NCBI GenBank assembly: GCA_963708075.1
Contig: OY970194.1
Span: 992,001-1,056,000 of the forward strand
Direction: 5' to 3'
Origin: Sedimentisphaerales bacterium
Lineage (GTDB): Bacteria; Planctomycetota; Phycisphaerae; Sedimentisphaerales; Anaerobacaceae
Length of the DNA stretch: 64,000 nt
The notes under the pieces: generated by a model
Told to the model about the DNA's origin: nothing
Databases searched by the model: none
The model's input: the letters and a program-made list of their open reading frames with translations, nothing else
Part shown: positions 8,876-17,974 of the stretch, in pieces
How positions within the stretch are numbered: the stretch's first letter is position 1
Layout of the letters: every line of letters starts with the position of its first letter
Translations under genes and position numbers: made by a program

Positions 8876-10096
8876 AGGGCTATCGCATCTAAATTGAGCC
8901 TTTGCAGGCATGGTTTCGTATTCTTCTCAGAAGCAAGACACTTCAAGTAGAGAGGAATACGTTTTTGATGAAGAAATCGATTTGGGATCATTTTGCCGCG
9001 GTTCCTGATCCTCGCGTGGAGCGGACGAAACGGCATGAATTACAGGATATTCTGGTCATTGGCGTCTGTGCCGTGATCTGCGGGGCTGAGCACTGGACGG
9101 ACGTAGAGATGTTCGGCAACGTCAACGAGGAATGGTTTGGCACGTTTCTGGACCTGCCCAATGGCATTCCATCGCATGATACCTTTGGTCGGGTCTTTGC
9201 CGCCCTGGACCCGGATGCGTTTGAAGCGGTCATGCAGGCGTTTGTGGCGGATCTGGCCGGCAGCAGCCGGGGCAAGCACATCGCCATCGACGGCAAGACC
9301 CTGCGAAACAGCTTTGATCGGGTCCGTGCCAAAGGCCCGTTGCACATGGTCAGTGCCTGGGTCCACGAGAACTGCGTGGCTTTCGGCCAACGGGCGGTCG
9401 ATGCCAAGAGCAATGAGATCACCGCGATCCCGGAGTTGCTCAAGCTGCTCGACGTGGAGGAGGCAACCATCACGATTGACGCCATGGGTTGTCAAAAGGA
9501 GATCGCCGAGCAGATCGTCGATCAGGGCGGCGACTATGTGCTGGCCCTCAAGGCTAACCAAGGGACTCTGTACGAGGATGCCCGGATGTACATGGAGGAC
9601 GGCATCGCCCACGGGTTTGCCGGCGAGCAGGACTTCTGGGAAACCGTGGAAAAAGGCCATGGACGACTGGAAACCCGGCGGGTGTGGACTACCAGCGATG
9701 TGGGATGGCTGCAAGGGCGTCACGACTGGCCGGGTCTGGGCAGCCTCACGGCCATCGAGCGAGAGCGTCAGGTCAACGGCCAGTGCGAACGAAAGCGACA
9801 CTACTTCATCAGCTCCCATCCGGGACACTGTGCCCAGCGTCTGGGGACATTGATTCGCCATCACTGGTCCGTGGAGGTCCAGTTGCACTGGTCGCTGGAC
9901 GTGAGTTTCCATGAGGACGCCAGTCGAGTCCGAGTGGCCAACGCCGCCGAGAACTTCTCGCGATTGCGTCGAATCGCCCTGATGCTGCTCAAGCAGGAGA
10001 AGACGGCCAAGGGCGGCATCGCCGCCAAACGCCTCCGAGCCGGCTGGGACCGAGACTACCTGCTTAAGGTCCTTGGCATTTAGATGCGATAGCCCT
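8876..10096 (+). mobile_element. ISAs1-family insertion sequence
   Basis: Perfect 19-bp IR AGGGCTATCGCATCTAAAT (8876-8894 / 10078-10096); direct repeat GGGGTTTCCGT at 8865-8875 and 10097-10107 (9-11 bp depending on where the ends are placed). Confidence 0.93.
8968..10083 (+). CDS. ISAs1-family transposase (intact)
   Basis: [62 protein letters not shown]. Confidence 0.95.
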
Positions 10097-12575: not shown

Positions 12576-14244
12576 GTGCCGAACTACAGCGAATACAGCA
12601 AGACATCGGTTCTGGTCGTAGGCGCCGGTCCCGCGGGCCTGTCCACGGGGATTCAACTGAAGGTTCTTAAGCCGGACCTCGATGTGTGCGTGATCGACAA
12701 GGCCCTCGATCTGGGCAACCACAATCTCTCGGGCGCGGTGCTCGAAAAGGAGCCGCTGAGCGCGCTGCTCGACGCCGCCAAGCCCGGCTGGCGCGACACG
12801 GATGAGGCCAAGCAGATCCTCGCCAACGTGATCGACAAGGACGACATCATGTTCCTGCTGGGCAGCAAGATGGCGTTTGGGATTTTCCCCATGATCAAGA
12901 TGGCTCGGGGCATGGGCCTTGCCTTCGGCCAAATGATCCATCATGGCGACTATTCCTTGTCCATCAGCCGGCTCACGAAATGGCTGGGCGGGATTGCGAG
13001 GGGGCTGGGCGTGGAGGTTCTGACAGGCTTTGCCGCTGACCATGTGGTCTTCGACGGCGATGGCCTCGCCGCAGGCGTCAAGCTCGTGGATCAGGGCGTC
13101 AATAAAGAGGGGCACAAGCAGCCAAATTACACGGAGGGCGAGACGATCCAGGCGAAATTCGTCGTGCTGGCCGAAGGCTGTGACGGTCTCGTCACCGAGC
13201 GGTTTGTCGAGCAGGCGGGTCTGAAGCGCGAATCCCACCAGCTTTACTCGCTGGGTGTCAAAGAGCTGATCAAGGTCACGCCCGAGCAGTACAACAAGTT
13301 CACGAGAGGCCGGGTCGTCCACGCGATGGGCTACCCGATCTGGACGCCGGTCATCGGTCCTGGGATGTTCGGCGGTGGCATCGTCTATGCCGGCGAGCAA
13401 GACCATCTGGCCGTCGGCATGATCGTCGGTCTCGACTGGAAGTATCACGATTTCAACACCCAGGATGCGCTCGTGCGGCTCAAGGAGCACAAGTTCGTCA
13501 AGCAGTACATCGAGGGAGGTACGGTCGTCGAGGCGGGCGCCAAGATGATTCCCGAGGGCGGCTGGCACGCCGTGCCGCGCGATCCCGAGACGCCAGAGCA
13601 TCGGCAAGGGTAACGTGATGATCCTCGGCGACAGCGCCGGCTTTGTGAACATGCTCAAGATCAAGGGCCTGCACAACGCCATCGATTCCGGCATCCAGGC
13701 GGCCAAAGCCATTGTCGCGACGTTGAATAGTTCGAACGGGGCGGCTCGCAAGTACACCGAGAACGTCGAGCAGTCCAACATCGCCAGAGAGATGAAGACG
13801 GCGAAGAACTTCCGCCAGACGGTGGCCAAGTTCGGGCCGCTGCAGGGTATGCCGCTGTCAGTCCTCGGCCGCTGGCTGCCGAAGTTCCATGTCGAGAAGG
13901 ACTACGAGGCGATGACGGGGGCCTCATACCGGCTCAAGCCGAACCAGGCTTTCGACAAGGACACCTTCACGGCGGTTGCCGCCACGGAGCATCGCGAGGA
14001 GCAGCCGTCCCACCTGAAGATCCTCGACCGGACCATCTGTGACACCAGATGCCGTCCGTTCTTCGAGGCCCCGTGCATCACGTTCTGTCCCGCGGGTGTC
14101 TATGAGGCGATCCACGACGAGGTCAAGCCGGCCAACCCCTCCAACTGCCTGCATTGCAAGACCTGCCAGCGCAAGTGTCCGTTCGACAACATCCGCTGGA
14201 CCGCCCCCGAAGGCGGCGGCGGCCCGCGATACAAACGCATGTAG
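12576..14244 (+). CDS. ETF:quinone oxidoreductase / FixC-FixX fusion (frameshift near 13593)
   Basis: VVGAGPAG FAD motif, SGAV, LGVKE, IPEGG, GDSAGF; C-terminal C-x3-C-x7-C-x3-CP and CLHCKTCQRKCP. Removing one C gives ...RDPETQSIGKGNVMILGDSAG. Confidence 0.88.
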
Positions 14245-14317: not shown

Positions 14318-14444
14318 TTATTGTCAAGTTCGCCGCCACGGCTCCTGGACGCGTATGAACGTGCAGCCAAAGTCAGGTTCTCCCTGGGCTTTATTAAGGG
14401 ATCCCCTTACGCCATTCCGATGACAGCCGTCGTATAGAATGTGA

Positions 14445-14648
14445 CACGATCAGCATCGTGCGGATCGTTGAAGGAAAGATCGAGCGGCACCAGCGAGATA
14501 CCGGCAAGCAGCAGACAAAGAGGTCCGTATCAGTCTGCCATCGGGTGGGTTTGTGAACCGTCAATGCTGGACCCGAGAAATGCCTGGAACAGATACCAAG
14601 CCATGGGCAAAGGAACGGATGTGCCGTTTTGCCCATGGCCGGTGCCGC
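14445..14648 (+). promoter_or_regulatory. Candidate structured 5' leader RNA (multi-stem), family not recognised
   Basis: Stems CACGAT/ATCGTG; GCGGCACC(14484)/GGTGCCGC(14641) enclosing GCAGAC/GTCTGC, TCGGGT/ACCCGA and GCCATGGGCAA/TTGCCCATGGC; TAGAAT -10-like box at 14435. Confidence 0.45.
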
Positions 14649-14693
14649 ACGAAGTAGTGGACGACAATCGGGGATCATTCAGAAGGAAAGGGC

Positions 14694-14918
14694 GTGGAGA
14701 TGCGTGTGAACGTCAACAGAAGATATGTCATGAAGATCCTGATGTCGCTGAGTGGATATCGGGCAGGGCCGCTTGCTCCGGTTGTGATGGGAATAGTGGG
14801 GTTGTGGCCGGTGCGGGCATGGAGTGCCATAGCGGCACTGGGGAATGCCTCACCGAGGCAAGTTGGGCGGGCCCGGCCGCTTGGCAAGATCGGGAGAACG
14901 CGTGCGCCTCCGGTGTAA
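14694..14918 (+). CDS. 74-aa small protein ending in RAPPV (candidate ribosome-arrest peptide)
   Basis: AAGGAAAGG SD before GTG; contains RAGP internally and RAPP at the C-terminus; followed by a terminator. Confidence 0.55.
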   Translation: MEMRVNVNRRYVMKILMSLSGYRAGPLAPVVMGIVGLWPVRAWSAIAALGNASPRQVGRARPLGKIGRTRAPPV

Positions 14919-14944
14919 CAATCCGTGCGGCGCCGCACACGAAT

Positions 14945-14998
14945 GGCCGAGAGGACTGGTCGCCAATTAAGGCGGCTGGTCCGATCGGCCTTTTTTTT
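14945..14998 (+). terminator. Intrinsic terminator
   Basis: Long stem GGCCGA..GGACTGGTCGCC-AATTAA-GGCGGCTGGTCC..TCGGCC followed by T8. Confidence 0.75.
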
Positions 14999-15047: not shown

Positions 15048-16988
15048 TTACCTGACTCCGATGCCGCTTGGTCGCGTGTTCGCGCCGTTGAGGTTGAGGT
15101 GGTAGAGGTTGGGCAGTTGCTCCCAGAGACGCTGGACGGCCTCGTCGCTGAAGTCGCGGTCCGAGTGGACCTCCAGGAATGCAAGCTGCTTGAAGCCTTC
15201 AAGATAGCCCAAACCTTTGTCGGTGATGCGCCCGCTATGATCCGGCATGTGTTCGTCCCTATCAAGACCGCCGCGGATGCTCAGATGATTGAGCTTCTTC
15301 ATGTTAGCCAGTTGCTTGAGTCCCTCATCCGTCAGGCTGCCGCCGAGGCCCAGCCGATCCATCTCGGTCAGACCGGCCAGGTAGGGCATGCCCCGATCTG
15401 TGAAATTGCGGGGTTGGATTTGGAGCCAACGTAGCTTCTTCAGATTGGGCAGGCATGCCAGATCGGCATCACCGAATGCGTCCTGAGCGTCAGGGCTGAG
15501 GGTCAGGGTCAGGTACTCGATGTTCACCAAACCCGACAGGTCCAGCACGGCCCCACTCCGCACCAAGTCGCCTACATCCAACCGCGTCACGCCTGACAGC
15601 GAATGAAGCGAACTCAAGCCTGCGATGGTCAGGCGACTGTGCCTGATGTGGAGACTCCTGAGCGATCTCAAGCCGGCCAGCTTGGCCAGTCCCTTATCAG
15701 TCACGCCCTCGCAGCCGACCATGCTGAGTTCCCTCAAGTTCATCAGTTTCGCAATAGAGTCCATGCCGGTGTCGGTAATTCCGATGCTGCCGATGTAGAG
15801 TTCCTCAAGCTGATGGAGTTTGGCCAGTTCCGCCAGACCTCGGTCGGTGTAGTATTCCTTGTTCACGGCGGGATTATTGAAATGGATTCGGGAGATCTGG
15901 AGGTGCTTGAGGTTCGGGAGTTCCGCCAGGTGGGCCAGCCCGACATCCGTGATGCCGTGCTGATCTCCGGGGAGATCGAGATGCTCAAGCGTCCTGATCT
16001 GCTTGAGGTGACTCAGTCCCGTGTCCGTCACCTGTGCGCTGGCAATGTCCAGTTTCCTCAGGGAGCGTGTCTTGGCAAGATGGGCGAGGCCTGCATCGGT
16101 GATGCCTCGCATCCCATGCAAGCTCAACATCTCAAGATTGGGCAGTTCCGATAGATGGGCCAGGCCGGCATCGCCGATTCGACAGTAGCCGTCATGAATG
16201 GAGAAGATTCGGAGCGACGGAATCTGTTTGAGGTAGACCATGCCGGCATCCGTGAAGCCGGGACCATTCACGGCCAGGTACTTCAGATGCGGTAGGCCTC
16301 GCAAGTGCGCCAGGCCCACGTCGCCGATGCCTTGGCCGAGATACAGCTCTTCCAGGGCCGTCAGTTTGCTGATGTGCTGCACGCCGGCGCCGGTGATCTT
16401 CGTGTCCCACGGGAAGTACAGCCGCTTGAGCGATGAGAGTTGTGCGACATGAGTCATGCCCCGGCTGGTGACCTTGATATTCAGGCTCAACTCCTCGAGC
16501 GATGGAAAGCTCGCAAGCATTCTCATTCCCCAGTCGGTGATGTCGGTGTTGTCCAGCCCCAGTTCTCTCAGTCCGCTCAGATGCGTCACGGGCTTGAGGC
16601 GTGCGTCGCCCGGCTTGACCCGGCCCATCGTTTCTGTGAACCTCAGGCTGTAGAGATCATCCGGCTGGAGCTTCATGAGCCATGAAAGGTCGGCCCATGA
16701 ATCGGCATTGACCGTGAGGCGTACATGCTTGCCGGGAGGGACGCGGATGTCCCCCTGCGCCTCGCAGAAGTACTCCCACGGGGTTCCACTGAGGCCATTG
16801 ATCCCGGTCCAGTGGAACCAGAGCGTGAATTCTCTGCCCGTTCCTTCGTCCTGGACGTGAATCTGTCCTACCGGTCGGTCGCTGGGAAAACGCAGGATGC
16901 GTGCTTCATGGATCTTCCCGACCTCGGCCGGAACTGCAGCGCCGAGGATCGCCGGCACAACCAGAAACGCTGTCAAACCGATCTGCAT
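15048..16988 (-). CDS. Secreted leucine-rich repeat protein
   Basis: Many repeats of the type ITDAGLAHLAKLxxLxxLxL; AAGGAGG SD before ATG 16988; signal-like N-terminus. Confidence 0.9.
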   Translation of the reverse strand: MQIGLTAFLVVPAILGAAVPAEVGKIHEARILRFPSDRPVGQIHVQDEGTGREFTLWFHWTGINGLSGTPWEYFCEAQGDIRVPPGKHVRLTVNADSWADLSWLMKLQPDDLYSLRFTETMGRVKPGDARLKPVTHLSGLRELGLDNTDITDWGMRMLASFPSLEELSLNIKVTSRGMTHVAQLSSLKRLYFPWDTKITGAGVQHISKLTALEELYLGQGIGDVGLAHLRGLPHLKYLAVNGPGFTDAGMVYLKQIPSLRIFSIHDGYCRIGDAGLAHLSELPNLEMLSLHGMRGITDAGLAHLAKTRSLRKLDIASAQVTDTGLSHLKQIRTLEHLDLPGDQHGITDVGLAHLAELPNLKHLQISRIHFNNPAVNKEYYTDRGLAELAKLHQLEELYIGSIGITDTGMDSIAKLMNLRELSMVGCEGVTDKGLAKLAGLRSLRSLHIRHSRLTIAGLSSLHSLSGVTRLDVGDLVRSGAVLDLSGLVNIEYLTLTLSPDAQDAFGDADLACLPNLKKLRWLQIQPRNFTDRGMPYLAGLTEMDRLGLGGSLTDEGLKQLANMKKLNHLSIRGGLDRDEHMPDHSGRITDKGLGYLEGFKQLAFLEVHSDRDFSDEAVQRLWEQLPNLYHLNLNGANTRPSGIGVR

Positions 16989-17105
16989 GATTGTCCTCCT
17001 TAAATAACCGCGCAATGTTGACGCAGACGTCGGAGGATTGATGCAAAAAGCACGAGGAATCCGGCCTGCGCAGGAACCGGCATGTCATCTGCTGGTTGGG
17101 ACGCA

Positions 17106-17689: not shown

Positions 17690-17974
17690 CTATTCAGTTT
17701 CCTGGGGAGTTTTCTCCGGTTTCGTGTTCTTCCTGCGGGCCGGCTCCTCAGGTTTCTCCGCCGTCTCAGTTATGGGACTGGCCTGGGCTGTCCCTTCGGC
17801 CTTCTGGGCCTTTTCCCGTTGAATGGCGTCGTAAATCTCTCTGCGGTGCACGGGGATGCTCTTCGGGGCGGTAATCCCCAACCGAACCTTGTCGCCTCGG
17901 ACGTCGACGATGGTGATCTCAACGTCGTCCCCGATCATAATGGATTCGTCTCGTTGTCTGCTCAGAACCAACAT
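17690..17974 (-). CDS. csrA: Carbon storage regulator CsrA
   Basis: MLVLSRQRDESIMIGDDVEITIVDVRGDKVRLGITAPKSIPVHRREIY, with a charged C-terminal extension. Confidence 0.97.
   Translation of the reverse strand: MLVLSRQRDESIMIGDDVEITIVDVRGDKVRLGITAPKSIPVHRREIYDAIQREKAQKAEGTAQASPITETAEKPEEPARRKNTKPEKTPQETE

Follow-up and report, generated by a model that had tools for sequence, protein, structure and literature searches.

A conserved RAPP-ending reading frame joined to an uncatalogued structured RNA domain in a self-contained locus of a Sedimentisphaerales bacterium

Ribosome arrest peptides of the RAPP type are described in the reports cited here as products of upstream open reading frames (uORFs) that tune the next gene, mostly by way of an exported or membrane-directed N-terminus (PMC10987492; PMC12992588; PMC10951233). 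The criteria laid down for ApdA, ApdP and the RQH family are a RAPP-like motif at the C-terminus, placement as the uORF of a regulated gene (sec/yidC or other), and a signal peptide or transmembrane segment in the N-terminal part, separated from the motif by over 30 residues (PMC10987492). Two further systems couple a short reading frame to the fate of its own transcript. In Sinorhizobium meliloti, rnTrpL/peTrpL is a short RNA, closed by a terminator, whose small ORF encodes 14 amino acids. It senses Trp codons and is cut loose from the attenuator before trpE(G), and its translation decides the supply of a trans-acting RNA (PMC7968998). In Bacillus subtilis, the Rae1 substrates spyA/S1025, bmrX and fliY are short ORFs in operon mRNAs on which ribosomes stall at stop codons or SPP, and where the stalled ribosome directs a cut in its own RNA (PMC12407103).

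The locus described here, a self-contained unit of 550 nt, resembles ApdA, ApdP, the RQH family, CruR and the RAPP/RGPP ORFs of Streptomyces lividans in having a small ORF with RAPP near its C-terminus, conserved residues just upstream of the motif, a variable N-terminus and a patchy distribution. Unlike those peptides, it has no downstream co-transcribed gene and no clearly conserved signal peptide or membrane segment; its ORF is preceded by a structured domain of 215 nt and followed by a constitutive terminator. At this locus the ORF does not precede a regulated gene; for that reason, and for want of a clear localisation signal, we do not file the unit with ApdA, ApdP and RQH, and a profile search of Pfam, NCBIfam and PDB gave no sequence match to families of that type. 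In its action the unit probably resembles a RAPP arrest peptide. Its nearest counterpart in logic is rnTrpL, with which it would share a short terminated RNA whose translation decides the supply of a trans-acting RNA, and from which it differs in having no operon, a motif-based stall and a large separate RNA domain (PMC7968998). The unit is a real and conserved one, in which the RAPP arrest-peptide theme is joined to an RNA domain absent from current catalogues. In a partial set of the literature, no title or abstract opening describes a stand-alone RAPP unit; family members may occur in the ORF lists that supplement PMC12992588 and PMC10987492.

The window, by which we mean the whole 64,000-nt stretch analysed, corresponds to C1:992001-1056000 of a 7.5-Mb single-contig genome (60% G+C, 93% complete); all positions below count from its first letter. 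An earlier note on this DNA had reported a -10 box, a Shine–Dalgarno (SD) sequence, a 74-residue ORF with RAPP, a terminator and a convergent leucine-rich repeat (LRR) gene, and every one of these is present where it had placed them. The ETF/ETF-QO operon stops at 14244, upstream of the unit; 3′ of the terminator lies the LRR gene (15048-17015, minus strand), and no co-directional gene follows, as the earlier note had observed. On the plus strand, the -10-like hexamer TAGAAT (14436-14441) would place the transcription start at about 14446-14448. Contigs begin at 14446 (RNA run X10) and 14445 (run X5), which does not prove the start; no -35 box was seen, the promoter scan did not call the site, and TAGAAT-like hexamers occur 0.26 times per kb of intergenic DNA in this genome. 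A 5′ hairpin (14447-14467; predicted pair probability 0.89-0.92) is followed by D1, a multibranch domain at 14480-14652, for which the predicted elements are a closing stem (14484-91/14641-48), stems at 14511-38 and 14541-76, and a hairpin at 14600-39. The structured leader of about 250 nt that had been proposed therefore holds for its core, 14478-14655, which folds better than shuffled sequences (z -3.8), and not for the leader as a whole, whose fold is on a par with shuffles (z -1.4). Each arm of the D1 closing stem could also pair elsewhere, in the ORF and the 3′ region (14478-14488 with 14768-14778; 14640-14651 with 14924-14935 or 14901-14913). In equilibrium folds these alternatives lose, and the stem falls from 0.85 to 0.66 in the stalled model.

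A purine-rich, weakly paired linker (14653-14736), which has diverged in P0002, the closest homologue, and in a homologous RNA contig, holds the SD and the start codons of a 74-codon ORF running from GTG14694 to TAA14918 and ending in RAPP-V-stop. The SD (14683-14692), scored against the tail of the genome's own 16S rRNA, had been called strong; it is present at the right spacing and is better described as moderate to good, at -6.2 kcal/mol for GTG14694 and -7.6 for ATG14700, levels of -6 and -7 being reached by 36% and 24% of 3,731 crudely called gene starts. P0002 retains ATG14700 and not the GTG. Three arginine-proline motifs occur in the frame, namely RAGP (codons 23-26), RARP (59-62) and RAPP (70-73; 14901-14912). 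A role for RAGP, a motif that the earlier note had mentioned, finds no backing among the homologues, the closest of which has RAAP and the other subfamily nothing of the kind. The codon score of the ORF lies in the bottom 2-3% of real gene pieces and is non-coding-like. Its best 19-residue hydropathy window (1.54, residues 30-48) ends 21 residues before RAPP; by inspection, the larger subfamily has no comparable hydrophobic stretch.

A RAPP ending by itself is at chance level in this genome. Only 2 of 2,790 SD-led intergenic ORFs of 30-130 residues have RAPP among their last 15, and in the same set the control motifs AAPP, APPR, PPAR and RPPA occur 2, 2, 4 and 4 times; across six frames, RAPP falls within 3 residues of a stop 74 times. 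Support for the unit comes from conservation and not from the motif alone. In long genes of the genome, RAPP occurs 6 times in 1.45 million codons as against 21-202 in the other five frames, a depletion that agrees with the proteome-wide exclusion of RAPP reported in PMC12992588 and that makes a translated frame keeping RAPP unusual.

A full HMMER scan of 1.84 billion representative proteins yielded 6 matches to the ORF, of which 3 are true relatives, P0002 (E 2e-29, 84% identity), P0005 (2e-4) and P0007 (5e-4); the others (P0003, P0004 and P0006), repeat proteins without relation to it, were set aside. Eleven more matches came from a first profile search (7,095 candidates) and 3 from a second (7,999 candidates), and cluster look-ups contributed a further 3 members, whereas a word-indexed protein search with the single ORF had returned no candidate. 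The family now counts 17 homologues in 14 clusters, all unnamed or “hypothetical” and on contigs of 0.7-100 kb. RAPP is present in 16 of them, the exception being P0021, which diverges upstream of the motif, so that the prospect raised in the earlier note, that no homologue would conserve the frame and RAPP, did not come about. In a tree of the 16 RAPP-bearing homologues and the window, the window and P0002 separate from the other 15 (100/100, with the bootstrap unsettled). The two clades, about 40% identical overall, are linked by 62% identity over 34 residues, by the same position of the motif, and by similarity continuing past the window's stop. In the window and in 14 of the 16, RAPP begins at codon 70 counted from the start Met; P0002, with an in-frame insertion, and P0007, with a different N-terminus, depart from this. 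Among 11 cluster representatives, mean pairwise identity is 0.44 for residues 2-14, 0.71 for 15-28, 0.64 for 29-41, 0.83 for 42-56 and 0.90 for 57-73, and falls to 0.58 for 74-79. Past the motif, the window has a single residue, and its homologues 6, 9, 11 (7 sequences) or 29-108 (7 sequences); these tails shift frame, and some of their ends may be contig ends. This profile is what would be expected of an arrest peptide whose stop codon is seldom reached. No clear signal peptide or membrane segment is shared across the family.

It is possible, if somewhat unlikely in our estimate, that the locus is instead a non-coding structured RNA of about 550 nt, in which no functional translation takes place and both the open frame and RAPP arise incidentally from a conserved G-rich sequence. 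Besides the low codon score, the substitutions look neutral: amino-acid changes at residues 42-69 are no more conservative than neutral single-base changes (p 0.37), and those at residues 2-41 are less conservative than neutral. RAPP is no more invariant than its neighbors G64, I66, G67 and R68, and the predicted RNA fold also accommodates 4 of the 5 changes that separate the window from P0002 in codons 15-74. Such a molecule would likewise accommodate D1 being more conserved than the ORF, the sequence similarity that continues beyond the stop of the window as far as the hairpin and the terminator arm, and the coincidence of RNA contigs with predicted D1 and D2 (below). What it accounts for less readily is a start-to-RAPP length fixed at 70 codons across two subfamilies so diverged, changes of frame and stop that accumulate only after RAPP, an SD at the right spacing, and the asymmetric conservation of the D2 stem. 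Before RAPP, no stop was seen where about 6 would be expected under neutrality (103 distinct changes), a count subject to ascertainment as the homologues were drawn from a protein database and are thus biased towards open frames. Taken with the insertion in P0002, which keeps the frame and which we count for an arrest ORF, these observations lead us to think it likely that the ORF is translated.

Conservation at the RNA level exists as well, as the similarity past the window's stop indicates. D2, a long hairpin within the ORF that ends just before the RAPP codons (14737-14895, predicted pair probabilities 0.65-0.99), lies in a region that folds only modestly better than shuffles (14700-14945, z only -2.1). 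Between subfamilies its 3′ arm is conserved and the partner 5′ arm is not, an asymmetry that pairing alone does not predict. Twelve nucleotides after the last Pro codon, and beyond the stop of the window, there follows a small hairpin (14925-14938) with the sequence GUGCG-4 nt-CGCAC. Read back from protein rather than from DNA, the GUGCG arm at +12 is compatible with 14 of the 16 homologue tails and the CGCAC partner at +19 to +27 with 15; given its place behind the stop, this hairpin is evidently kept as RNA. In the folding model, the RAPP codons of the free transcript pair with 14929-33, and the hairpin at 14925-38 forms when, and only when, the footprint of a stalled ribosome is blocked. 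The unit closes with an intrinsic terminator of a 20-bp stem and T8 (U8 in the RNA; 14945-14998, z -7.8). P0002, a read-through call spanning a whole second locus, appears from its translation to keep both ends of this architecture: 14 consecutive codons of its N-terminus are identical, in a frame shifted from that of the window, to the translation of the 3′ part of D1, and its tail resembles the terminator, with a T-run possible at +77 as against +78 in the window. Long hairpins read back from 7 read-through tails give p 0.02-0.35 and are only suggestive.

These tails bear on whether the unit is an orphan, that is, a RAPP uORF attenuator whose downstream gene is under its control in other hosts but has been lost here. 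In favor of the idea, the RAPP peptides tested are uORFs (PMC12992588), and the conserved hairpin has the position expected of a switch operated by a ribosome; variability in the genus is, moreover, high behind the ETF operon. In the larger subfamily, P0007, P0010, P0018 and P0020 are not compatible with a T-run directly after the long stem, and P0005 and P0017 are compatible with one only about 120 nt after RAPP. The tails of these last two would, however, also accommodate a sigma-70 promoter, TTGACA-16-TATACT, at +138/+141 (7 and 2 of 300 shuffles; again from protein), in which case the following sequence would have its own promoter. For rnTrpL-like attenuation a competing anti-terminator would be expected, and the equilibrium model produced none in the free, stalled or queued fold, the terminator having a probability of 0.98-1.0 in all three. 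With P0002 seemingly retaining the terminator and its U-run, and the unit intact and found in RNA libraries, we regard an orphaned leader as unlikely; of the two outcomes that the earlier note had left side by side, an orphaned attenuator and an undescribed module, the module is the better fit.

There is good evidence that the unit is present in RNA libraries. Parts of it occur in 20 sequencing runs from 13 studies, 5 of the runs being recorded as RNA. Contigs were aligned from 4 of the 20, 3 of them RNA and from different studies, and all 4 contain D1 at about 98.5% identity (14457-14662, 14446-14636, 14474-14662 and 14445-14680); D1 is covered in each of the 3 RNA runs, which speaks against the lack of a transcript that the earlier note would have counted as refuting. 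No piece of the flanking genes at 95% identity or above was found in any of the 4. The contigs have a depth of 3-6, come without strand or true ends, and derive from libraries that, where RNA, can contain DNA. That the contigs of two studies end at 14662, and that D2 appears in one RNA contig without differences over 14737-14894, one nucleotide short of its predicted end, amounts to a weak hint of a processed 215-nt species; gaps over the linker and D2 in other runs are not evidence of absence. D1 itself is known only for the subfamily of the window and P0002; a diverged relative of D1 occurs in the same RNA run as the D2 contig. Six read variants fall in D1, 2 at unpaired positions, 2 keeping a wobble and 2 breaking pairs, and they lend no covariation support. 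Neither D1 nor the unit has a significant match in Rfam (one lncRNA match, E 4.6), and D1, searched for in 60 relatives with a covariance model built from its single sequence, gave no match; if our reading is true, D1 would bring a new structured RNA domain of an uncatalogued family.

The best explanation, to which we give a probability of roughly 40%, is a self-contained RNA gene in which D1 and a 70-codon arrest ORF share one terminated transcript, and in which the stall refolds or processes the RNA that carries it. The ribosome would stall at RAP/P, the geometry demonstrated for ApdA and ApdP (PMC10951233), and the stop codon would drift because it is seldom reached. We consider stalling fairly probable, having weighed against it that arrest was not seen with the majority of natural RAPP-like sequences put to the test (PMC10987492). 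The stalled ribosome would then cover the RAPP codons and prevent their pairing with 14929-33, freeing the conserved hairpin at its leading edge; this switch rests on the folding model. As no gene stands behind and the terminator is constitutive, the stall probably acts on its own RNA, and may set the lifetime of the transcript or the site of a cut, for instance by a Rae1-type nuclease behind the stalled ribosome. Cleavage or decay would leave D1, about 215 nt, as the working product, a processing step and a role for D1 that we infer. The genome has an NYN_YacP (Rae1-like) gene, and since Rae1 cuts 12 nt upstream of a stalling Pro codon (PMC12407103), a cut at that distance would fall at about 14898. 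A cut of the SmrB/MutS2 type is unsupported, no Smr domain having been found in the 93%-complete genome.

One can also imagine the transcript as a sink for ribosomes, abundant and holding a queue of them in order to store them or to arrest growth, while D1 shields the 5′ end or binds a regulator. Seventy codons would hold about 7 footprints, and a fixed length, a dispensable stop and a variable N-terminal sequence would all suit a parking place, as would an arrest that resists EF-P (PMC12992588) and a patchy distribution like that of addiction modules. D1 appears without D2, however, in 2 of the 3 RNA runs. Neither an antitoxin nor a minus-strand promoter-like site for an antisense antitoxin was found within the unit by the consensus scan, the contigs being strandless, and we regard the scheme as improbable. 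Tentatively, and as a rather doubtful possibility, we suggest that units of this kind represent a new class of RNA gene whose arrest peptide regulates no protein gene, and in which a stalled ribosome, as switch or nuclease guide, releases or protects a 215-nt structured RNA or else is parked on the transcript. If true, arrest peptides would come to include a conserved RAPP family that lacks both a cis target and a clear localisation signal, can do without its stop, and controls its own RNA or the pool of ribosomes.

Several other classes of small RNA and peptide were compared with the unit. In having a closing stem, short stem-loops and then a longer hairpin, D1 recalls the msr-msd RNA of retrons as depicted in PMC7736814. 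A retron was rejected, as there is no contiguous reverse transcriptase and the stem lacks two G residues facing each other, A14492/G14493 being opposite C14640/C14639; RF00170, the model for msr, gave no match. The only RVT_1 match of the genome is a DRT8-type defense reverse transcriptase about 185 kb from the unit (L095:1111-2670; G000:C1 ~1191259-1192818). A sponge of the CsrB/RsmZ type was likewise rejected, the unit having 16 GGA against 15.5 +/- 3.2 in shuffles and hence no excess; a csrA gene lies in the window at 17690-17974 on the minus strand, 2.7 kb away. As a type I toxin the peptide would be borderline, its hydropathy in the window not being common to the larger subfamily. Between the conserved C-terminus and HEAT-like alphaRep repeats there is a weak resemblance (E 5.6 or worse), which was set aside.

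DNA searches of 60 relatives and of 400 class, 275 family and 400 phylum genomes, samples that overlap and in which many genomes are incomplete, found no homologue; they gave only 23-37-nt matches in 3, 3, 2 and 3 genomes, respectively, and the loci inspected were coding or unrelated sequence. The peptide profile had no match in the family and class genomes either, and the general presence in Phycisphaerae that the earlier note had thought worth seeking was thus not borne out in these samples; a single-protein search of the 60 relatives gave a best non-self E of 0.007. Pattern and protein scans of viral, genome and metagenome contigs returned nothing or chance matches (1, 10, 13 and 1 loci), plasmids and phages were negative except for 4 weak Escherichia coli matches (E 0.6), and Pfam, NCBIfam, PHROGs, PADLOC and ESM Atlas held nothing significant, nor did a genome-wide nhmmer search with the unit. 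An exact look-up of 7 frames from the unit found no match, and is uninformative because the LRR control was equally unmatched. That the unit is missing from the relatives searched, and its motif at chance level in the genome, might suggest that the insert has decayed, at a site of very high variability, and that its ORF is there by chance; with 17 homologues, a conserved hairpin position and presence in RNA libraries, this view is largely refuted and highly improbable.

Of 23 genomes of the genus, 21 were found to have the ETF-QO gene. Behind it the sequence differs from genome to genome, which marks the site as a variable insertion spot; among 25 non-self downstream stretches (of 26, one being too short), none listed resembles the unit. 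The LRR gene has one match among the 23 genomes, where an unrelated gene and not the unit follows. In the window, the ETF-QO gene (12576-14244, plus strand) is split near 13600 into two frames, possibly by an assembly error; most genus relatives have an open frame of 551-588 residues. Its 3′ end is duplicated nearby in the relatives L043/L053 (G006), L050 (G019) and L052 (G016), and the genes behind the duplicates differ, as at an integration hotspot. A REP-like palindromic element just after the ETF-QO stop is common to L028, L031 and L034, where it replaces the terminator or adjoins it. Before the ETF operon, the window has a DDE_Tnp_1 transposase (8902-10083, plus strand), which we take to be ISAs1-like.

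Two observations elsewhere in the genome may be recorded. A scan with ARAGORN (G000) listed 49 tRNAs, none of them as tRNA-Trp; a tRNA with an unreadable two-base anticodon at C1:7005903-7005979 is probably tRNA-Trp with a sequencing deletion. Finally, at G000:C1:1674367-1674648 on the minus strand, an SD-led intergenic ORF of 93 residues has exactly RGPP at its C-terminus and lies about 300 nt upstream of a co-directional gene, and is possibly an ordinary arrest uORF.
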